A stretch of 31,774 nt of DNA from Thermoanaerobaculia bacterium (GTDB taxonomy: Bacteria > Acidobacteriota > Thermoanaerobaculia > UBA5066): positions 1 to 31,774 of the forward strand of contig JAGOBQ010000001.1 in the NCBI GenBank assembly GCA_017999215.1, written 5' to 3'. This document shows, in pieces, positions 2,505 through 31,056 of this stretch. Position 1 is the stretch's first letter. Each line of letters begins with the position of its first letter. The notes beneath the pieces were generated by a model. That model was given only the letters and a program-made list of their open reading frames with translations, was not told the DNA's origin and did not search any database. The position numbers and the translations under genes are program-made.

Positions 2505-4819
2505 GGCCGGCCCCCCTTCGCGCCGGCCCCGCGGGACGCGAGCCGAAGCCTCACGAGCGACCAGACGCCGAGCGCGGCGACGCCGAGGACGGTGATCTCG
2601 CCGAGCGTGTCGAGGCCGCGGAAGTCGACGAGGATGACGTTCACGACGTTCCGCCCCTTCGCGAGGACGAGGCTCGACTCGCGGAAGAACGGGGCGAGGC
2701 GGGAGCGAAGCGGCTCGGCGTGGACCGCCAGGACGAGCCCGGCCATGACGGCGCCGACCGAGCCGGCGAGGAGGGCGTCGACGACCCGCGCGCGCGGGGC
2801 CGACCGGCTCTGCAGCCTCGGGAGGCGCCGGAGGACGGCGACGAAGAGGAGGACCGAGAGCGTCTCGACCGCGAGCTGCGTCATCGCGAGGTCGGGGGCG
2901 CCGAAGACGAGGAAGAGGAGCGCGACGCCGAAGCCCGTCACGCCGAGCGCGACGACGGCCGCGAGGCGCGAGCCGGCGAGGACGGTGCCGGCGGCGCCCG
3001 CGACGACGAGGAGGGCGAGGACCGCCTCGAGCGGCCGCACGGACCGGAGGGCGTCGGGCGCCCCGAGGACGGCCCGCGTCAGGAGGAGGGGCGCGACGAG
3101 GACGACCGTCGCGGCGAGGACGATCCGCAGGTCCTGCCGGAGCGAGCCGGACGAGAGGACCGACGCCGTCCCCTTCGCGAGCCCCACGAGGCTGGCGAGC
3201 CCCGCACGGTAGAGGCGGAGCGGCCCGAAGGCGACGAGGGGAGCGAGGCGCCCGGCGAGCACGCGGAAGCGGCGCCGCGCCGCGAAGAGGGCGACGCCGA
3301 CGACGAGCGTGACGAGGCTCTTGGCGAGGACGAGGTTGAAGCCGTGCCAGAGCTCCAGCGTGAGGGCGTGCGGCGCCCCGATCGCCGCCGCCGCGGCCGC
3401 CGAGACGAACGGGGAGATCGCCCCCGAGAAGAGGCCGGCGGCGAGGCTCCCGAGGCCGAGGAGGAGCGGGCCGGCCCACATGGCGGCCGGCGCCTCGTGC
3501 GGGGCCTTCGGCGTCTCCCCCGGCTGCCCCGCGAAGGGGCCCCAGCCGACGGAGAGGGCGACCGCCACGAGGAGCATGTTCGAGCCGACCGCGACGGGGA
3601 CGAGGAGAAAGGGCGCGGGCGAAGCGCGGAGGGCCGCGTCGTAGAGGAGCTCCTTGCTGACGAAGCCGAGGAGCGGCGGGAGGCCGGCCATCGAGAAGGC
3701 GGCCGCGGCCGCGGCCGCTCCGGTCACCGGGAGGGCGCGGAAGAGGCCGCCGAGGGCCGCGACGTCGCGCGTCCCCGTCTCGTGGTCGACGATCCCCGCG
3801 ACGAGGAAGAGCGCCCCCTTGTAGAGCGCGTGCGCGAGGAGGAGGACCATCGCCGCGGCGAGGGCCGCGGGCGTCCCGACGCCGACGAGCATCACGAGCG
3901 AGCCGAGGGCGCTGACGGTGGACCAGGCGAGGAGCCGCTTGAGGTCCCGCTGCCCCACGGCGAGGAGGGCCCCCGTCAGCATCGTCGCCGCGCCGACGGT
4001 CGTGACGATCCCGGTCCACTCCGGCGTCCCGCCGAGCGTCGGGTGGAGGCGCGCGAGGAGGAAGACGCCCGCCTTCACCATCGTCGCGGAGTGGAGGTAG
4101 GTGCTGACCGGCGCGGGCGCGGCCATCGCCTCGGGGAGCCAGAAGTGGAACGGGACCTGCGCCGACTTCGTGAAGGCGCCGAGGAGGACGAGGAGGAGGG
4201 CCGGGAGGTAGAGGGGGCTCGCCTTCACAGCCTCCGCGTTCGCCGCGAGCGCCCCGAGGTCGAGGCTCCCGCCCGCCTGCCCGAGGAGGACGAAGCCGGC
4301 GAGGAGCGCGAGGCCCCCGCCGCCCGTCACGAGGAGCGCCTGGAGGGCGGAGGCGCGCACCTCGACCTTCTCCCTCTCGAACCCGATGAGGACGTACGAG
4401 AGGAGGCTCGTCGCCTCCCAGAAGACGAAGAGGCCGAGGAGGTTGTCCGAGAGGACGAGCCCGAGCATCGCCGCGAGGAACGCGAGGAGGTAGCCGAGCA
4501 GGTTCCCGCGGCGCGGGTGCCCCTCCATGTAGCTCCCGGCGTAGAGCAGGACGACGGCCCCGACGCCGGTGACGACGAGCGCCATCAGGAGCGAGAGGCC
4601 GTCCAGCCGGAACGAGAGGGAGACGCCCAGCTCCGCGATCCACGCGAGCGACGCGGTGCGCGTCCCGCCGGCGGAGATCTCCGGGACGTGGCGAGCGAGG
4701 GCGAGGAAGAGGGCCGCCGGGACGAGCGCCAGGAGCGGCGCGGCACGCCGTCCGAGCCACCTCTCGAGGAGCGGCGCCAGCACGGCGGCGACGAGGGCGG
4801 CAAGGAGGGCGGCGATCAC
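2501..4819 (-). CDS. mrpA: Na+/H+ antiporter subunit A
   Basis: 772 aa. Motifs [45 protein letters not shown] and [19 protein letters not shown]. Confidence 0.96.
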
Positions 4820-22800: not shown

Positions 22801-23048
22801 CCGAGCCAGAGGTAGCCGTCCCGCGCCTGGAGGACGGCGTGGACGCTGTTCTGAGGCAGGCCCTCCTGCCAGGCGTCGAGGCCGTACTGCCCGAGCGGCG
22901 TCGCCGGGTCGAGAGCGGGGGCGTCTCCCGCGCCGAGGAGGAGCGCGGCGACGAGCAGGCCCCGGGCCGGAAGGAGCCGGAAGGACATCTGGACCGATTC
23001 TGAGGCCGAGCCGGCCGCGACGCGAGGAGCGCGGCCGGACCGCCTCAT
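19824..23048 (-). CDS. Sensor histidine kinase with periplasmic beta-propeller (Reg_prop) repeats, Y_Y_Y domain, TM, HisKA, HATPase_c
   Basis: Repeated GLP...V-x-A/S-L-x-ED-x2-G-x-LW-x-GT motifs; [10 protein letters not shown]...[13 protein letters not shown]; [16 protein letters not shown]; GGTGLGL. Start is either ATG 23048 (overlaps amidase stop) or ATG 22988. Confidence 0.92.
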
Positions 23049-24808
23049 CCCTTCGCCGCGACCGCCTCCACGAGCTTCGGCCGGCGCGTGTGGAAGTCCG
23101 TCGCCCGCTGGAAGAGCTCGGCCACGGCGAGGAGGTCGTTCTCGCCGAAGAGCCGCCCGGTGAACGTCAGGCTCGTCGGCGTCCCGTCGGAGAGCCGGAA
23201 GCCGTTCGGCACGACGACGCACGGGTGCCCCGTCAGGTTCGTCAGGAGGAGCGCGTCCCCGCCGAACGTCGGCGCGACGAGGAGGTCGACTCCCTCGAGG
23301 CATTCCTCCATCTCGCGCATCAGGAGCGTCCGGACGCGCTGCGCGCGGAGGTAGTCGGCGGCCGGGAGGAGCCGGCCCTGGCGGAAGACGTTCGGCCAGG
23401 CATCCGCGGTCTGGCGCACCATCCCCTTCACGCGACCGTCCAGGACGAGGGCGTCGAACGCGGCGGCCGCCTCGGCCGTCAGGATCATTCCGAGCGGGGC
23501 GACGGGCGTCCGGGAGGGGAGCTTCACCGGCACGAGGCGGACGCCGAGCTCGCGAAGGACGCCGAGGCTCCTTCGGTCGAAATCGCGCCACTCCGCCGCG
23601 CGGGCCTTCGCCTCCTCGTTCTCCGCCCCCGCGCTCCGGTCCTCGTCGAAGAGCTCTTCGACGAACCCGACCTTCAGCTCCGAGACGCTCCGGCCCGCCG
23701 GCCACGGGGCCGGGCCGTCCGTCGAGACCGGATCGAGAGGGTCCTTCCCGGCGATCGCCGAGAAGACGAGCGCGCAGTCCTCCGCGGAGCGCGCGATCGG
23801 GCCGACCTTGTCCATCGTCCACGAGAGGGCCATCACGCCGTGGCGGCTCACCCGGCCGAACGTGGGCCGGAGCCCGGTGACGCCGCAGCGCGTGCAGGGC
23901 GAGACGATGCTCCCCCACGTCTCGGTCCCGATCGCGAACGGGACGAGGCCGGCCGCCGTCGCCGAGGCCGAGCCGGCGGAGGAGCCGCTCGATCCCTGAT
24001 CCGTCTTCCACGGGTTCTTCGTCGTCCCGCCGAACCAGACGTCCCCCCAGGCGAGCTCGCCGACCGAGGTCTTCGCGACCAGGACCGCGCCCGCCTCCTC
24101 GAGCTTCCGGTAGACCGTCGCGGTCTCCGGCCGGACCTGCTCCCGGAAGAGGGGCGAGCCCCAGGTCGTCGGGTATCCGGGGACCGCGATCAGGTCCTTC
24201 GCGCCCCAGGGGATGCCGTGGAGCGGCCCGCGTTCCTTCCCCGCGGCGAGCTCCTCGTCGGCCCGCTTCGCCTGCGCGAGGGCCAGCTCCTCGGTCACCG
24301 TCACGGCGCACGAAAGGACCGGGCCGTACGTCCGGAGGCGGGCGAGGGCGAGCTTCGTCAGCTCCGTCGAGGAGACCTTTCGCGCGCGGAGGAGGCGCCC
24401 CAGCTCCCGCACCCCCGCGAAGGCGAGGTCGTCGTCCGACGGCGGGCGCACCACGGGTCGCTCCCGCCGCGCGGGGAGCTCGGGGCCTCTCGCCTCGGTC
24501 GGCGGCGGCCCGGCCGGAGCGAACACGATCGCCGGGGGGACCGCGTTGTCGAGCGCGACGGCGCGGAGAGCGGCGAGTCCCTCCGCCGTCTCGTTCAGGT
24601 CCGAGAGCATCAGCTCGCGCTCGGCGTCGGTGAACGCCACGCCGGAGATCCACTCCGCCTGCTTCACCATACCTGCGGTCACCTTCGCCGCCCCCTCCGC
24701 GAGCGCGGAGAGAGCCCGGCCGAAGACCGCGGCCCCCGCGCCTGCTCCGGCGAGGAGAGCCAGGATCCTGCGGCGCTCCGGGTCGACCCTTTCGGCGTTC
24801 TCGGTCAT
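23045..24808 (-). CDS. Amidase-signature family enzyme with a Tat-like signal peptide
   Basis: 587 aa. [15 protein letters not shown] leader; catalytic-triad motifs [14 protein letters not shown] and [11 protein letters not shown]. Confidence 0.88.
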
Positions 24809-24860
24809 GGACGGCCTCCTGTTCCCGGCGGCGACATCCCGGCGGCCCCCGCTGGCCCGA

Positions 24861-24871
24861 ATGCTAAATTA
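24861..24871. promoter_or_regulatory. AT-rich island with overlapping -10-like boxes for the divergent mscL and amidase genes
   Basis: Plus strand TGcTAAATT (extended -10); minus strand TAGCAT and TAATTT. Confidence 0.45.
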
Positions 24872-24964
24872 CCCCCGTCTCGGCAGCCGATCGCCGTTCC
24901 TCGTCTGCGAGGTACGAGGGCCGGGCGCGGGACGAAGGCAGCCGACACGGAAGAGGAGAGCCAC

Positions 24965-25381
24965 ATGCTGAAGGAATTCAAGGAGTTCGCGATCAAGGGG
25001 AACGTCATCGACATGGCGGTCGGCGTCGTCATCGGGGGCGCGTTCGGCAAGATCGTGAACAGCCTCGTGACGGACGTCATCATGCCGCCGATCGGCCTCC
25101 TCCTCGGGAAGGTCGATTTCACGAACCTCTTCCTCAACCTTTCCGGCACCCCCGTCGCGTCGCTCGCCGAAGCGAAGGAAAAGGGGCTCGCGACGCTGAA
25201 CTACGGCGTCTTCATCAACACGGCGTTCGAGTTCTTCATCATCGCGTTCGCGATCTTCCTGGTCATCAAGCAGATCAACCGCCTGAAGCGCGAGGCCCCG
25301 CCGGCCCCGGCCGCCCCGCCCGAGCCCTCGAACGAGGAGAAGCTCCTCGTCGAGATCCGCGACCTCCTGAAGTCGAAGTGA
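24965..25381 (+). CDS. mscL: Large-conductance mechanosensitive channel
   Basis: ATG at 24965; 138 aa. [31 protein letters not shown]...EIRDLL. Confidence 0.97.
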
Positions 25382-25392
25382 CGGGGAGCTGC

Positions 25393-26118
25393 ATGAAGAA
25401 GGCCCTCGTTCTCTCCGCCCTCCTCCTCGGCTCACTCTCCGCCGCCGCGGCCGACGAGCCCCCGCCGGGTTGGCACGGCAGCGTCGGCGCCGGCCTCTCG
25501 ATCAGCTCCGGCAACAGCGACGCGAAGAGCTTCAACCTCTCGGGCGATCTGAAGTACGACCCGAAGACGAAGAACGTCGTGAAGCTCGGGGCCCTCTTCC
25601 TCCGGAGCGAGTCGAACGGCGCCACGACCGCAGACAAGCTCGTGGGGACGATCCGGGACGAGTACTCCGTGAGCGACCGCTTCTTCGTCTACGGCGAGGT
25701 CGGCTACCTGCGCGACAAGGTCGCCCGCCTGAGCTACCTGATCTCGCCGATCGCCGGGGCGGGATACAAGGTCGTGAAGACCGACACGATGACGTTCGAC
25801 GTCTTCGGGGGAATCGGCGGCGCGTTCGAGAAGCTGGAGGGGCACGACTCCACCTCGAGCGGCGCGTTCCGGGCGGGCGAGGCCTTCACGTGGAAGATCT
25901 CCCCGACGGTGACGCTCGGGCAGAACGGCTCGGGCCTCTGGAAGGCGAACGACACGGGCGACGCCTTCCTCCACTTCGACGTCAGCCTCGCGACGTCGCT
26001 CTCGAAGCTCCTCGAGCTGAAGCTCGCCTACCTCGTCGACCACAAGACCCGGCCGGCGTTCGCGAACCTCGACGAGACCGACACCGCTTTCCTCGCGACC
26101 GTCGTCGCGAAGTTCTAG
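25393..26118 (+). CDS. DUF481 (YdiY-like) outer-membrane beta-barrel
   Basis: ATG at 25393; signal peptide, WHGSVGAGLSISSGNS, alternating beta strands and terminal Phe (VAKF). Confidence 0.8.
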   Translation: MKKALVLSALLLGSLSAAAADEPPPGWHGSVGAGLSISSGNSDAKSFNLSGDLKYDPKTKNVVKLGALFLRSESNGATTADKLVGTIRDEYSVSDRFFVYGEVGYLRDKVARLSYLISPIAGAGYKVVKTDTMTFDVFGGIGGAFEKLEGHDSTSSGAFRAGEAFTWKISPTVTLGQNGSGLWKANDTGDAFLHFDVSLATSLSKLLELKLAYLVDHKTRPAFANLDETDTAFLATVVAKF

Positions 26119-26134
26119 ACGCCCTCCCGCGTCT

Positions 26135-26162
26135 CCCCGGGGCCGCGTCCGCGGTCCCGGGG
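26135..26162 (+). terminator. GC hairpin after the mscL-DUF481 operon
   Basis: CCCCGGGGCCGCG-TC-CGCGGTCCCGGGG, 12-13 bp stem with one G-U pair. Confidence 0.5.
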
Positions 26163-26225
26163 CCCGGATCGTTCCCGTCGGCCGACGCGCCCGTTCACGG
26201 CCGGGCCGGACGCCCTCTCCGGCGC

Positions 26226-26231
26226 TAAGAT
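26226..26231 (+). promoter_or_regulatory. Candidate -10 box (TAAGAT) upstream of gatE
   Basis: TAnnnT hexamer about 48 nt before TTG 26280. Confidence 0.4.
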
Positions 26232-26279
26232 GCCCCGTTCGCCCCGGGCCGACGTCCCGCGGGCGGGAAGGGGGCGCCC

Positions 26280-28271
26280 TTGTACCCGACCCTCGACTAC
26301 GCTGAGGTGGGCTTCGTCTGCGGGCTGGAGGTCCACCAGCAGCTCCTGACCCCGACGAAGCTCTTCTGCCGCTGCCCCGCGGGGCTCTACACGGAGACCC
26401 ACGACGGGACCGTCCTCCGGCACATGCGCCCGACCCTCTCGGAGCTCGGCGAGTACGACGGCACCGCGCTGATGGAGTTCAAGACGAAGAAGAACATCGT
26501 CTACCTCCTCAACGTGAGGAACGTCTGCACCTACGAGATGGACGACACGCCCCCGTTCCTCGTGAACCAGCAGGCGATCGACGTCGCGATCGAGCAGTGC
26601 CTCATGCTCGGGTGCGACATCGTCGACGAAGTCCACATCGCGAGGAAGCAGTACCTCGACGGCTCGATCCCGACCGGATTCCAGCGGACCGCCGTCGTCG
26701 GTGTGAACGGGAAGATCCCGTTCCGCGGCCGGGCGCTCTCCGTTACGCAGGTGACGGTCGAGGAAGACTCCTGCCGCGAGGTGCGCGACCGCGGGCACTG
26801 CATCGTCTGGCGCGCGGACCGGCTCGGGATGCCGCTCATCGAGACCGTGACCGGGCCGGACCTGCGGACGCCGGACGAGGTGGAGGAGGCGATCCTCCTC
26901 GTCGGCCGCGTCTGCCGCTCGACGGGCCACGTGAGGACCGGCCTGGGCGCCTCGCGCCAGGACGTGAACGTCTCGGTCCGGGGCGGCCGGCGCGTCGAGA
27001 TCAAGGGGGTCCCGAAGGCGGGCTGGGCGCCGCGCCTCGTCCACGGCGAGGCCTGGCGGCAGGTGAACCTCCTGAAGCTCCGCGACGAGCTCCACCGCCG
27101 CGGCTTCACGACGCCCGCCTCGCTCCGCGTCGAGTCGCAGGACGTGACCCAGCTCTTCGCGGCGACCGAGATCCCGTACCTCAGCCCCGCCGCGTGGGAG
27201 CGCTGGGTCGAGGAGGAGAAGATGCGCCCCGGTTTCGAGCTCGGGAAGGGGCCGTACCGCGTCCGCGCGGCGCGCCTCCCCGGCCTCGCCGGGACGCTCT
27301 CCTGGCCCACGCAGCCCGAGCACGTCTTCGCGCACGAGCTCTCGGGCCGGGTCCGCGTCATCGCCGGCCTCGACCAGGTCCCGAACCTCCTCCATTCCGA
27401 GGCGTGGCCCGACGCGCGCGGGACCCGCGCCGAGCTCAAGCGCCTGCGCGGGCGCCTGCGCTGCGGCCCCGACGACGCGATCGTCGTCGTCTGGGGCCCC
27501 GAGGAGGACACCGTCACCGCCTGCGAGGAGATCCGCCTCCGGTACGTCGACGCCATCAACGGCGTCCCGAACGAGACCCGCCAGCCGTTCGTGGACGGCT
27601 CGACCGACTTCGAGCGGATCCTCCCCGGCCCCGACCGGATGTACCCCGACACCGACAGCCCGCCGACGCGCGTCACGCGCGACCGCGTCGCCCGGCTGAG
27701 ATCGTCGCTCCCGGAACGGCCGTGGGACCGCGAGAAGCGGTACACGGACGCGGGGGTCCCCGTCTCGACGGCGCACTTCCTCATCCGGCGCGGCGCCGCG
27801 GCCGTCGTCGACCGGCTCGCGAAGGAGACGGGCGCGCCGGTGCGCGACGTCGCGTTCCTCTTCGGCGAGAGGCTGAAGGGGCTGCGGCGGGCTTCCGTCC
27901 CCGTCGACGCGATTCCCGAGGAGCGCTGGGAAGAGCTCCTCCGCGCCTTCGTCGCGACGCCGGTCCTGAAGCAGGCCTGGGAGCCGATCGTCCTCGCAAT
28001 CTCGGAAACGCCGGAGCGGCCCGTCGCCGACCTCCTCGCAGACCGCGGCCTCGGGCAGGAGCCCCCGGCCTGGCGCTCGGGGATCCCCGCGGCGCTCGCC
28101 GCGGCGCGCGACAGGGCCTACCGGAAGGAGGACGCCGAGCTCGTCCGCCGCCTCGCCTTCGCGGGCCTCATGCCGGGACTCCTCGGCCGCGTCCCGGCGA
28201 CCGAGGTCGAGGCGGCCGTCGCGGCCGCGTCCTCCCCGGACGCCCCGAACGCCTCGGAGGTGCGCGCGTGA
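26280..28271 (+). CDS. gatE: Glu-tRNA(Gln) amidotransferase subunit E (archaeal type)
   Basis: 663 aa, TTG start (in-frame TAA upstream at 26226). Motifs GLEVHQQL, KLFCRCP, LRHMRPTLSELGEYD, RKQYLDGSIPTGFQRT, EEDSCRE, DRLGMPLIET and RQDVNVS; AspRS-like insertion; GVPNETR and RMYPDTD. Confidence 0.93.
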   Translation: MYPTLDYAEVGFVCGLEVHQQLLTPTKLFCRCPAGLYTETHDGTVLRHMRPTLSELGEYDGTALMEFKTKKNIVYLLNVRNVCTYEMDDTPPFLVNQQAIDVAIEQCLMLGCDIVDEVHIARKQYLDGSIPTGFQRTAVVGVNGKIPFRGRALSVTQVTVEEDSCREVRDRGHCIVWRADRLGMPLIETVTGPDLRTPDEVEEAILLVGRVCRSTGHVRTGLGASRQDVNVSVRGGRRVEIKGVPKAGWAPRLVHGEAWRQVNLLKLRDELHRRGFTTPASLRVESQDVTQLFAATEIPYLSPAAWERWVEEEKMRPGFELGKGPYRVRAARLPGLAGTLSWPTQPEHVFAHELSGRVRVIAGLDQVPNLLHSEAWPDARGTRAELKRLRGRLRCGPDDAIVVVWGPEEDTVTACEEIRLRYVDAINGVPNETRQPFVDGSTDFERILPGPDRMYPDTDSPPTRVTRDRVARLRSSLPERPWDREKRYTDAGVPVSTAHFLIRRGAAAVVDRLAKETGAPVRDVAFLFGERLKGLRRASVPVDAIPEERWEELLRAFVATPVLKQAWEPIVLAISETPERPVADLLADRGLGQEPPAWRSGIPAALAAARDRAYRKEDAELVRRLAFAGLMPGLLGRVPATEVEAAVAAASSPDAPNASEVRA

Positions 28272-29662
28272 ACGAGATGAACGATCCCCTCAAGGGCTAC
28301 AAGGGCCACGCGCGCGAGGTCCTGACCCGGTTCGACGTGAAGGTCTGGAGCGACGTCCGCGCGACGAACGACGCCGGCTCGGTCTTCGAGGGCGTCATCC
28401 TCCCGAGGAGCGAGTCGTTCGACGACCTCCACGTCGTGATGAAGCTGAAGACCGGCTACAACGTCGGCCTCCACGTCGACCGCCTCGTGGACGTGATCGA
28501 GGTCGGATACAAGGAAGCGAAGTACAAGATTCCCGAGAAGGAGTTCCCCTCCCGGCCGACGCTGCCGAAGGTGACGCTCCTCGGGACGGGCGGGACGATC
28601 GCCTCGCGCCTCGACTACCGGACCGGCGCCGTCATCCCCGCCTTCACGCCGGGCGAGCTCTACGGGGCCGTCCCGGAGCTGGCCGACATCTGCAACCTGA
28701 CGACGAAGAAGATCTTCGGGGTCTTCTCCGAGAACATGGCGATGGAGAACTACATCGTCCTCGCCAACGCGATCGGGGAGGAGATCGCCGCCGGGGCCGA
28801 CGGGATCGTCATCGGCCACGGCACCGACACGATGGGCCACACGGCCGCGATCCTGTCGTTCATGGTCCAGAACAGCCCCGTCCCCATCGTCCTCGTCGGC
28901 TCGCAGCGCTCGTCCGACCGCCCGTCGTCCGACGCGGCGCTGAACCTGATCCACTCCGTGAGGACGGCCGCCTACTCCGACATCGCCGAGGTCATGATCT
29001 GCATGTTCGGGCCGACGTCCGACAGGTACGGCCTCCTCCACCGCGGGACGCGCTGCCGGAAGATGCACAGCTCCTACCGCTCCACGTTCCGGACGATCGG
29101 CGACATCCCGCTCGCGATGGTCAGCCCGACCTCGTTCACCTATCTCAACGACGACTTCCGCCGCCGCGACAAGACGCGCGTCCCCGTCATCGACCCGGTC
29201 TACGACGACCGGACGACGATCCTCTACTACTACCCCGGCATGAACCCCGACCTCGTCGACGCCCTCGTCGAGAAGGGGTACCACGGCATCGTCATCGCCG
29301 GCACCGGCCTCGGCCACGTCAACAAGCCGCTCTACCCGGCGATCAAGCGGGCGACGGAGGCGGGCGTCCACATCGTCATGGCCGTCCAGACGATCTGGGG
29401 CTTCGCCCAGATGTACGTCTACGACACCGGGCGCGACCTGATGGACCTCGGCATCGTCCCGCTCGACAACATGATCCCCGAGACGGCGCTCATGAAGCTC
29501 TCCTGGGTCCTCGGGCACACGCGCGAGCGGGCCGAGGTGATGCGCCTCATGACGACGCCGATCGCCCACGAGATCACTCCGCGCGAGCCCCACAACGGCT
29601 ACCTCGTCATGCAGGGGGGGCTCCCCGAGACCGAGGAGTGGGTGCGGGGGCACTGGAAGTGA
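28268..29662 (+). CDS. gatD: Glu-tRNA(Gln) amidotransferase subunit D (asparaginase-like glutaminase, archaeal type)
   Basis: GTG at 28268 overlaps the gatE stop; 464 aa. GatD N-domain (VMKLKTGYNVG), TGGTIASRLDYRTGAV, HGTDTM, GSQRSSDRPSSDA and RKMHSS. Confidence 0.95.
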   Translation: MNEMNDPLKGYKGHAREVLTRFDVKVWSDVRATNDAGSVFEGVILPRSESFDDLHVVMKLKTGYNVGLHVDRLVDVIEVGYKEAKYKIPEKEFPSRPTLPKVTLLGTGGTIASRLDYRTGAVIPAFTPGELYGAVPELADICNLTTKKIFGVFSENMAMENYIVLANAIGEEIAAGADGIVIGHGTDTMGHTAAILSFMVQNSPVPIVLVGSQRSSDRPSSDAALNLIHSVRTAAYSDIAEVMICMFGPTSDRYGLLHRGTRCRKMHSSYRSTFRTIGDIPLAMVSPTSFTYLNDDFRRRDKTRVPVIDPVYDDRTTILYYYPGMNPDLVDALVEKGYHGIVIAGTGLGHVNKPLYPAIKRATEAGVHIVMAVQTIWGFAQMYVYDTGRDLMDLGIVPLDNMIPETALMKLSWVLGHTRERAEVMRLMTTPIAHEITPREPHNGYLVMQGGLPETEEWVRGHWK

Positions 29663-29666
29663 ATCG

Positions 29667-30617
29667 ATGAGAGCCCTCACCTACGAGAGGCACGGAGACC
29701 CGCGCGACGGAGTCGTAAAGAGCGTCTTCGACCCGCGCCCCGGCCCGGGGCAGATCCTCGTCCGCGTCGTCGCGGCCGGCCTCAACCCGGCGGACGTGAA
29801 GATCGTCGAGGGGAAGATCCCCTTCCTGACCTTCCCGAAGAGGCCGTTCGTCCCGGGCTGCGAGGCGGCCGGCGTCGTCGAGGCGCTGGACGGGCGCGTC
29901 TCGGGGTTCCGGCCCGGGGACGAGGTCGTCGTCTCGACGGGCCTCGGAGGTGCGCTCGCCGAGAAGGCCGTCGCATCCGCCCTCCACGTCGCGCGGAAGC
30001 CGGCCTCCCTCCCGTTCGAGGAGGCGGCCGCGATTCCCGCCGCCGGGCAGACGGCCCTCCGGGGCCTCCGCGACGTCGCCGGGCTGCGGGCGGGGCAGCG
30101 GCTCCTCGTGAACGGCGCCGGGGGCGGCGTCGGGACGTTCGCCGTGCAGATCGGCAAGGCGCTCGGCGCGCACGTCACGGCCGTCGCGAGCGCCGGCAAG
30201 CGCGAGCTCCTCGCGGGGCTCGGGGCGGACGTGTTCGTCGACTACGCGCGGGAGGACTTCGCGAAGGCGCCCGAGGAGTGGGACGTCGTCTTCGACGTCG
30301 TCCCGAACCGGACCTTCGGCGGCTGCTCGAAGGTCCTCTCCCGCGAGGGGACGTACCTCACGACGCTCCCGGGACCCGGGCCGCTCCTCGCCTCGCTCGG
30401 CGTCTCGTTCCGCTCCCTCTTCGGGTTCCGGAAGCGCTGCCGGTGGGTGATGCTGCGTCCCCGCGGCGAGGACCTCGACCTGCTCCTCCGCTGGGCCGTC
30501 GAGGGGAAGGTGAAGCCCGTCGTCGGAAGGTTCGTCCCGCTCGACCAGGCCGCCGGGGCCCTTTCCGACCTCTCCCAGGGGCACACGGCCGGAAAGACCG
30601 TGGTGGCCATGGCGTAA
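29667..30617 (+). CDS. NAD(P)-dependent MDR (quinone/zinc-ADH-like) oxidoreductase
   Basis: 316 aa. Motifs AAGLNPAD, PGCEAAGVV, NGAGGGVGTFAVQIGK and GKTVV. Confidence 0.9.
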   Translation: MRALTYERHGDPRDGVVKSVFDPRPGPGQILVRVVAAGLNPADVKIVEGKIPFLTFPKRPFVPGCEAAGVVEALDGRVSGFRPGDEVVVSTGLGGALAEKAVASALHVARKPASLPFEEAAAIPAAGQTALRGLRDVAGLRAGQRLLVNGAGGGVGTFAVQIGKALGAHVTAVASAGKRELLAGLGADVFVDYAREDFAKAPEEWDVVFDVVPNRTFGGCSKVLSREGTYLTTLPGPGPLLASLGVSFRSLFGFRKRCRWVMLRPRGEDLDLLLRWAVEGKVKPVVGRFVPLDQAAGALSDLSQGHTAGKTVVAMA

Positions 30618-30630
30618 ACCGGGTCGGACG

Positions 30631-30720
30631 TCAGGCGACACCACCCTGTTCCGGGCCTCGATCGCGCGGCAGCGTGAACGTGAACCTGGCTCCCTCGCCC
30701 ACGGCGCCCTCGGCCCGGAC
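30631..30720 (-). pseudogene. Remnant 3' end of a histidine kinase (HATPase_c last strands)
   Basis: Hand translation VRAEGAVGEGARFTFTLPRDRGPEQGGVA-stop; no kinase sequence upstream of it. Confidence 0.55.
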
Positions 30721-30790
30721 CGGGGGGGGGCGGGGCCCCGGATGCTGAGCTCCGCCCCACGAGCCAGCCCCGAAGTCGCCCGGAAAGGCC

Positions 30791-31056
30791 ATGATCGAAT
30801 GGCATCGCGCCCTCGCGGCCGTCGACGCCGCGCTCCCCGCTCCGTTCGGCTTCCGGAATCGGGGCCAAGCGCTCGTGTCGAAACAGTGCGCGGAGGACTC
30901 GGCTGGCTCTTCGACCGCGCGACCGACGGAAGACCGGGGGCGATCGTCGGGAGGATCGCTTCGCTCGAACAGGCCGCGCGGGCCTTCTCGGACCTCTGGG
31001 ACCTCTCGTGGGGAAGCGTCACGGGGAAGACGGTGGCGAAGAGAGTCGCTTCCTGA
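30791..31056 (+). pseudogene. Frameshifted, diverged copy of the 3' end of the neighbouring MDR oxidoreductase
   Basis: PFGFRNR and IVGRIASLEQAARAFSDL..SWG...GKTV match LFGFRKR and VVGRFVPLDQAAGALSDLSQG...GKTV. A 1-nt loss near 30898 splits it over two track ORFs. Confidence 0.7.

Follow-up and report, generated by a model that had tools for sequence, protein, structure and literature searches.

The Locus

The window considered here, 31,774 nucleotides in length, is one whole contig (C589; JAGOBQ010000001.1) of a genome bin assigned to a Thermoanaerobaculia bacterium of the phylum Acidobacteriota. On its forward strand lies an adjoining pair of genes, gatE and gatD, for the two subunits of GatDE, a tRNA-dependent amidotransferase that reviews published from 2009 to 2022 describe as restricted to archaea (PMC2811023, PMC9499178). 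The gatE gene (26280-28271) codes for 663 amino acids, starts with TTG and is preceded by the purine-rich GGGAAGGGGG; its product comprises a cradle (kinase/transamidase), an AspRS-like insertion, a helical domain and a YqeY-like tail. The gatD gene (28268-29662) starts with GTG and codes for 464 amino acids, comprising the GatD N-terminal domain and both asparaginase domains.

The two reading frames overlap by 4 nucleotides (GTGA). As read from the sequence, a coupling signal occupies positions 28256-28271: GGAGG (28256-28260) lies 7 nucleotides 5' of the gatD start at 28268, and the TGA stop codon of gatE takes up 28269-28271. Judging from this translational coupling and from homology, GatD and GatE probably form a complex, in which the glutaminase would be activated by tRNA. 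The spacer 5' of gatE (26119-26279, 161 nucleotides, forward strand) holds neither a sigma-70-like promoter match nor a tRNA gene, and a promoter and terminator scan of 25300-30900 gave no promoter-like site and one terminator-like site, within gatE, which is less than chance expectation.

Membership of the GatDE Family

Both proteins are assigned to GatDE by models, motifs and fold. GatE scores 460 bits against NCBIfam NF003107 (cut-off 456, a narrow pass) and 382 bits against TIGR00134 (cut-off 320), while GatD reaches 488 bits against NF003217 (cut-off 310) and 485 bits against TIGR02153 (cut-off 324). GatB models give only 57-128 bits on the window GatE, against cut-offs of 315-680; neither window protein is a GatB or GatA subunit of GatCAB, and the true gatB of the genome lies on another contig (C123). 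Pfam recognizes GatB_N at residues 13-468 of GatE, and GatD_N, Asparaginase and Asparaginase_C in GatD. The motifs GLEVHQQ, EEDS and RQDVNVS are present in GatE and align with the enzymes of P. abyssi (1ZQ1) and M. thermautotrophicus (2D6F, with tRNA-Gln). The cradle residues (the His of LEVHQQ, the EED acidic cluster, RQDxNxS and MYPDTD) are invariant across 39 aligned GatE sequences. In GatD, the motifs TGGTIASR, HGTDTM and RKMH are conserved in the alignment with 1ZQ1_A (E 7e-121), and so the Thr of TGGT, the Thr-Asp pair of HGTDT and the Lys of RKMH, catalytic residues of the type-I asparaginase fold, are all in place. The original prediction of a full-length, coupled gatE-gatD with these motifs is borne out, since all of them align to 1ZQ1 and 2D6F, the GTGA overlap is present and the NCBIfam cut-offs are passed.

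Residues 5-591 of the window GatE align to 1ZQ1_C. An AlphaFold (AF2) model of GatE, built with 39 homologs, has a mean predicted local distance difference test score (pLDDT) of 92 and a predicted template modelling score of 0.88, and is confident to residue 651; its best fold matches are 1ZQ1_C and the GatE of 2D6F (template modelling score 0.79-0.83), with GatB next. The GatE-specific AspRS-like insertion (about residues 275-430) aligns to that of 1ZQ1_C, is modelled with pLDDT above 90 and gives weak fold matches to AspRS. The basic loop near the tRNA's first base pair, which takes the place of the 3-10 turn of GatB, is also retained.

The tail of the window protein departs from that of canonical GatE. 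The fold is there, as helices extend to residue 651 (pLDDT about 93), and the sequence still holds the LMG..RG core, but it reads ..LVRRLAFAGLMPGLLGRVPA.. where canonical GatE has GxxAxGxLMG..RGKxDG. The canonical GxxAxGx motif is absent from the window GatE and from 79 named bacterial sequences: the 4-residue xxAx stretch is deleted, basic or aromatic residues stand at the G/S-P positions, and the shorter basic motif [KR][RK]x[RK][FYWL]-LMG is found instead. As a sequence pattern, it is reminiscent of the Lys-rich motif that GatB has at the corresponding position. Membership of the GatDE family holds by sequence, fold and catalytic residues. Three features that define canonical GatDE are lacking, in that the host has GlnRS, its tRNA-Gln does not carry A1-U72 and the tail is without the canonical motif; the window system is therefore best called a distinct variant of GatDE.

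Bacterial Setting and Selection

The bin to which the window belongs measures 4.5 Mb in 674 contigs, with 72% GC, 90% completeness and 0.8% contamination. In such a fragmented metagenome bin, an archaeal or chimeric contig would be a conceivable artefact, but this explanation is all but refuted. The neighbouring genes on both flanks are those of a diderm bacterium: a Reg_prop/Y_Y_Y histidine kinase, an amidase, MscL, a DUF481 outer-membrane barrel, a Zn-dehydrogenase and a DUF11/IPTL-CTERM protein. An independent contig of 24 kb from a sludge metagenome spans positions 24800-30700, from MscL to the dehydrogenase, in the same gene order with 29 differences, which shows that the junctions did not arise in assembly. 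Holophagales and Acidobacteriota bins supply the nearest GatE sequences (91-96% identical), some of them on Holophagales contigs of up to 355 kb. The stretch itself was found in wastewater, sludge and biofilm assemblies from 12 studies, and contigs from metatranscriptome libraries cover the operon at the same depth as its flanks, which is compatible with transcription and no more.

The GC content of the operon (0.69-0.74) and its GC by codon position equal those of the rest of the contig without any shift, in line with the codon style noted earlier. In comparisons with close orthologs (81-96% protein identity, with synonymous divergence dS up to 0.6), the ratio of nonsynonymous to synonymous substitution rates (dN/dS) is 0.11-0.22 for gatE and 0.08-0.21 for gatD, that is, 0.08-0.22 for the pair. 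Both genes are under purifying selection. The view that an intact GatDE is maintained in a diderm bacterial chromosome is thereby upheld by the bacterial neighbours, the independent contig and the dN/dS values.

The same evidence bears on the possibility that the pair is merely carried along, as a neutral passenger that was gained by horizontal transfer, is in the course of being lost and has no present function. Its patchy distribution would suit such a passenger, as GatE was not found in three sampled genomes of the family of the window or in two of its order. This is nevertheless a very improbable explanation, given dN/dS far below 1 in both genes among orthologs reaching dS 0.6, reading frames that are intact in nearly all loci, and a GC content and codon usage that are wholly host-like.

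Distribution in Bacteria

The original prediction implied a rarity, and in this it does not stand. A protein search returned 8000 matches, the top 120 of them at 70% identity or more, and the named matches come from Thermoanaerobaculia, Vicinamibacterales, Eisenbacteria and other Acidobacteriota. When one genome was scanned for each species, more than 590 loci emerged, and the gene pair is already labelled GatE/GatD by automatic annotation. The 80 loci kept for analysis belong mainly to Acidobacteriota, Myxococcota, Planctomycetota, Ignavibacteriota, Bacteroidota, Chlorobiota, Calditrichota and Rhodothermota. Among them the order gatE then gatD is near-constant, and clustering of the flanking open reading frames disclosed no common partner besides the pair itself. 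A literature search found no paper describing or testing a bacterial GatDE.

Gene content was surveyed in samples of 301 Acidobacteriota and 61 Thermoplasmatota. GatE occurs in 52 of the 301 genomes from the phylum of the window and is patchy by family, being present in 8/8 genomes of one and in 0/20 of another. One unpublished genome (G024), with a GatB match and no GatE match, enters only the phylum-wide tallies.

Phylogeny and Archaeal Relatives

Trees were built with FastTree (191 GatE) and with IQ-TREE (LG+C20 PMSF, 120 sequences), using the GatB of the window genome as outgroup. The window GatE branches with GatE and not with GatB, and all named bacterial sequences fall together with it and with GatE from Thermoplasmatota in one clade, with support of 99-100 in both analyses. 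The cross-domain relation to archaeal enzymes that had been proposed is supported. This clade of bacterial GatE and the GatE of GlnRS-bearing Thermoplasmatota is here called B-type. Outside it lie the canonical archaeal sequences, with those of Asgard archaea (Heimdall- and Thorarchaeota) among the closest.

As many as 58 of the 61 sampled Thermoplasmatota have GatE, of two kinds: canonical, 30-38% identical to the window protein, and B-type, 42-51% identical. Five archaeal genomes (G309, G331, G348, G351 and G360) contain both. One B-type sequence (L099) is the sole GatE of a Thermoplasmatota bin in which the archaeal ribosomal protein L21e is encoded. At the base of the clade, the 11 B-type sequences from archaea fall into three groups; the bacteria make up one clan with support of only 74. 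On sequence grounds, this fits an origin of B-type GatE in Thermoplasmatota-like archaea followed by one transfer to bacteria. The opposite direction, archaeal uptake from bacteria, fits as well, in that one archaeal B-type contig has a bacterial-type tgt and a queuosine-precursor transporter. On this Thermoplasmatota contig (L179:12385-14306, G314:C13), the Tgt (an equivalog match of 462 bits) and the transporter adjoin gatE; queuosine synthesis would not be expected of archaea. A retained ancestral system, the other origin first considered, is unlikely in view of the patchiness within the phylum (0/3 in the family, 0/2 in the order) and the position of the bacteria as one derived clan in a clade shared with Thermoplasmatota.

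The archaeal B-type enzymes (L099, L142, L145-L146, L148-L149, L151-L155) share the GatE clade of the window with support of 100, and here too a bacterial-type GlnRS co-occurs. This GlnRS, scoring 685-745 bits and above the cut-off, is present in 10 of 13 Thermoplasmatota with B-type GatE (G301, G305, G312, G314, G317, G320, G331, G340, G348 and G360) against 0 of 10 with canonical GatE only; GatB was found in one of these 23 genomes. Their tail motif is intermediate, for example GRxGPLMG. Unlike in the window, gatD is divergently transcribed, upstream of gatE, as in L099 and L180. In these same two loci, which represent two archaeal B-type groups, a type I glutamine synthetase gene (glnA) lies directly 3' of gatE (L099:8008-9309 and L180:11296-13002).

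Synthetases and Amidotransferases of the Hosts

The gene content of the window genome was searched for the other routes to Gln-tRNA(Gln) as well as to Asn-tRNA(Asn). GatB is present (493 bits), together with a C-terminal fragment of GatA at a contig end. GlnRS is in two pieces, each at the end of a contig (604 and 274 bits), one lying next to tRNA-Gln and the other right after gltX. AsnRS, one GluRS and one bacterial-type AspRS (contig C673) complete the set. A possible second, archaeal-type AspRS, on contig C311, proved to be LysRS. The suggestion that GatDE might replace GatCAB for glutamine is contradicted by the presence of GatB, the GatA fragment, GlnRS and AsnRS. Neither AsnA nor AsnB was found in this 90%-complete bin of 674 contigs, and without them asparagine must be made on tRNA or imported.

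The arrangement of the split synthetase can be described further. Contig C248 carries gltX and then glnS, and C217 the other half of glnS followed by tRNA-Gln(CUG), which suggests a compact gltX-glnS-tRNA-Gln cluster broken by the assembly.

The other GatE-bearing Acidobacteriota are equipped in a similar manner. GlnRS occurs in 47 of 51 and AsnRS in 50 of 51, and the four genomes without GlnRS all have GatB. With GlnRS and AsnRS or GatB co-present in the carriers, GatDE is never the sole route to charging tRNA-Gln or tRNA-Asn in these Acidobacteriota. Searches for GatB itself found none in 30 of the 52 genomes with GatE, as against 44 of the 249 without GatE, although the genomes are related and the counts are not independent. 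This inverse relation suggests that GatDE and GatCAB can substitute for each other. Five genomes from three families (G018, G079, G065, G167 and G207), which are 95-99% complete, combine GatDE, GlnRS and AsnRS and are without GatB, AsnA and AsnB. The 44 genomes that lack both GatE and GatB, by comparison, comprise 41 with AsnB, one with AsnA and two with neither; these last two bins are less complete, and the genes are present in their congeners.

tRNA Identity and GluRS Specificity

Bacterial GatCAB and GatDE both read their tRNA at its first base pair and D-loop (PMC2811023). The tRNA-Gln and tRNA-Asn of the window genome have U1-A72, G73 and an identical 7-nucleotide D-loop (AAUGGUA) in common, and because of the shared pair and D-loop they are inseparable to an enzyme that reads these two elements. 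The tRNA-Glu has G1-U72 and the tRNA-Asp G1-C72, with a D-loop of 9 nucleotides in both. The only tRNA-Gln found is that with anticodon CUG on C217; tRNA-Gln(UUG) was not found in the bin. The U1-A72 pair of the tRNA-Gln(CUG) is the one expected for a bacterium and answers the question raised about the 1-72 pair. In both tRNA-Glu genes (C291:3873-3949 and C168:5189-5264), the first acceptor pair is the wobble G1-U72 and not G1-C72.

Discriminating and non-discriminating GluRS are told apart at a column that we take to be that of Arg358 in T. thermophilus GluRS. The GluRS of the window genome has Arg there, like the discriminating GluRS of E. coli, where the non-discriminating GluRS of T. elongatus (2CFO) has Gly. 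A GluRS with the same Arg is present in each of the five genomes that have GatDE without GatB. Two of them, G079 and G018, have in addition a second GluRS (L177 and L178, respectively), about 45% identical to that of the window genome, the first copy lying beside glnS. The second GluRS might be a GluRS2-like enzyme making Glu-tRNA(Gln).

Function of the Bacterial Enzyme

Since GlnRS, AsnRS and GatB are also encoded in this Holophagales genome, the status of GatDE there is accessory, and the gatE-gatD pair is very likely to be a working accessory amidotransferase. By homology, GatD would hydrolyse Gln or Asn to give ammonia, while GatE, with ATP, would act on a mis-acylated aminoacyl-tRNA, phosphorylating its side-chain carboxylate before amidating it. 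As tRNA-Gln and tRNA-Asn are indistinguishable by first pair and D-loop, the substrate in the cell would be decided by whichever synthetase mischarges. The GluRS having the discriminating Arg signature, and neither AsnA nor AsnB having been found, Asp-tRNA(Asn) would be the mischarged species certain to exist, to be converted to Asn-tRNA(Asn). A link to asparagine is also favoured by the five genomes with GatDE but without GatB, AsnA and AsnB, set against the two such cases among 44 genomes lacking GatE and GatB, and by the basic tail motif. We therefore put at about 0.45 the probability that the pair is a working accessory GatDE whose likeliest substrate is Asp-tRNA(Asn), in a tRNA-dependent asparagine synthesis parallel to GatCAB. 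In the window genome Asp-tRNA(Asn) is slightly favoured as substrate, with Glu-tRNA(Gln) close behind. Catalysis, the substrate and the acceptance of aspartate by the GatE active site are all matters that we infer.

Several observations weigh against a role in asparagine synthesis. In a bin that is 90% complete and broken into 674 contigs, the absence of a gene is weak evidence. AsnB is present in 21 of the 30 genomes with GatE and without GatB, so GatDE is retained where asparagine synthesis needs none, and the contrast of 5/30 with 2/44 genomes devoid of AsnA and AsnB is not significant and stems from three lineages only. Archaea provide no signal, as AsnB was not found in 22 of 23 sampled Thermoplasmatota irrespective of the type of GatE. 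As for GluRS, the Arg rule is a heuristic that looks at a single residue, and the second GluRS of G018 and G079 has Lys at the discriminating position. Moreover, every GatDE tested amidates only Glu-tRNA(Gln) (PMC2811023). The glnA gene directly 3' of gatE in the two archaeal B-type loci is a neighbourhood that points to glutamine, and a tRNA-Gln(-like) gene stands directly 5' of gatE in 3 of 92 loci, two in Holophagaceae and one in Myxococcota.

Part of this evidence speaks for a canonical Glu-tRNA(Gln) amidotransferase acting in parallel to GlnRS, either as a second supply of Gln-tRNA(Gln) or for the clearance of toxic mischarged tRNA, with GluRS or a second GluRS as the mischarging enzyme. 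That is the activity of all characterized GatDE (PMC2811023, PMC9499178), and a second GluRS without Arg is at hand in G018 and G079. The glnA right after gatE in L099 and L180 suits it, as does the tRNA-Gln(CUG) or derivative directly 5' of gatE in L055, L060 and L035, an arrangement for which the chance expectation in 92 loci is, by a rough estimate, about 0.03 cases. A tRNA used in common may be the reason why GatDE occurs together with GlnRS almost universally in both domains. The archaeon G354 has B-type GatE only, neither GlnRS nor GatB having been found in it, and the basic loop near the first base pair is retained. Nearly every carrier, however, has a GlnRS, which leaves the product unneeded; in the window genome, G065, G167 and G207, the single GluRS shows the Arg signature of a discriminating enzyme; the tRNA-Gln of the host carries U1-A72 and not the A1-U72 read by archaeal GatDE; and the tail motif is unlike that of canonical GatE. 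On balance, amidation of Glu-tRNA(Gln) is a credible but tentative alternative.

Repurposing, which the original prediction had allowed for, is a live possibility, though an improbable one: the enzyme could amidate another aminoacyl-tRNA, for instance for a non-ribosomal pathway, or could be a tRNA-gated asparaginase or glutaminase, or a regulator. It is redundant for translation in all genomes searched and yet under purifying selection, and its tRNA-facing tail motif is altered. Against such a change of task, all catalytic residues of the classical chemistry are retained, the 80 loci show no conserved partner gene, and its inverse relation to GatB suggests that the enzyme does what GatCAB does.

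Relation to Known Systems

The likeness to archaeal GatDE (2D6F, 1ZQ1) extends to the same two subunits, domain order and catalytic motifs, to the AspRS-like insertion and to the short basic loop at the position of the GatB 3-10 turn. The differences lie in the host, a bacterium with GlnRS, AsnRS and GatB and with U1-A72 and G73 instead of A1-U72 in its tRNA-Gln; in GatE, which at 30-38% identity to the canonical protein belongs to a separate clade and has a tail without GxxAxGx; and in the gene arrangement, the bacterial genes forming a coupled gatE-gatD operon.

In its cellular setting, the window system resembles certain GatCAB enzymes. GatCAB stands beside GlnRS and AsnRS in Thermus thermophilus, Deinococcus radiodurans and Bdellovibrio, and tRNA-dependent asparagine synthesis is its established role in Thermus and Deinococcus (PMC4206432). 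Like these, GatDE is kept beside two direct synthetases, with tRNA-Gln and tRNA-Asn sharing the U1-A72 and D-loop identity set, and in Acidobacteriota GatB and GatE tend to mutual exclusion. The ammonia-producing subunits are unrelated, however, GatD being of the asparaginase type and GatA, which acts with GatC, of the amidase type, and use of Asp-tRNA(Asn) has so far been shown for no GatDE.

A wider proposal would make B-type GatDE a functionally new branch, which reads bacterial-type U1-A72 tRNAs and yields Asn-tRNA(Asn), with or without Gln-tRNA(Gln); which spread between archaea and many bacterial phyla as a self-contained two-gene module, only into cells with GlnRS; and which can replace GatCAB, even as the sole asparagine route in some lineages. 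Taken as a whole, this is doubtful. If asparagine were indeed made on tRNA by GatDE, it would be a third solution to that task, and the genome-based prediction of amino-acid auxotrophy in Acidobacteriota, Bacteroidota, Ignavibacteriota, Planctomycetota and Myxococcota would change.

Two statements found in reviews are affected: that GatDE is a signature of archaea, and that archaea never acquired GlnRS on account of the co-evolution of GatDE with archaeal tRNA-Gln (PMC2811023, PMC9499178). Both are undercut, because one GatDE clade spans many bacterial phyla, stands beside GlnRS in both domains and occurs in hosts with the bacterial first base pair. B-type GatDE thus represents a natural experiment on how the tRNA identity rules of an amidotransferase change.

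Neighbouring Genes and tRNA Genes near gatE

A gene for a Zn-dependent dehydrogenase (29667-30617, forward strand; Pfam ADH_N and ADH_zinc_N) starts 4 nucleotides past gatD and may be co-transcribed with gatDE, though it is no part of the enzyme; it is not kept as a neighbour across gatDE loci. On the opposite strand, 1.5 kb upstream of gatE, an amidase-family gene (23045-24808) codes for 587 amino acids. Its product has a weak likeness to GatA (193 bits against a cut-off of 481), and the gene is not a conserved neighbour of gatDE either.

Of the tRNA genes directly 5' of gatE, the one in Mesoterricola (L055) was considered as a dedicated tRNA-Gln isoacceptor, a notion that was dropped as it is an exact duplicate of the ordinary tRNA-Gln(CUG). 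At the same spot in a metagenome-assembled genome of Holophagaceae (L060:4188-4263, with gatE starting at 4332) there is a tRNA-Gln-derived gene, 88% identical to the normal tRNA-Gln(CUG), with the amber anticodon CUA and C at position 37. This gene may represent a suppressor-like tRNA or a copy in decay.

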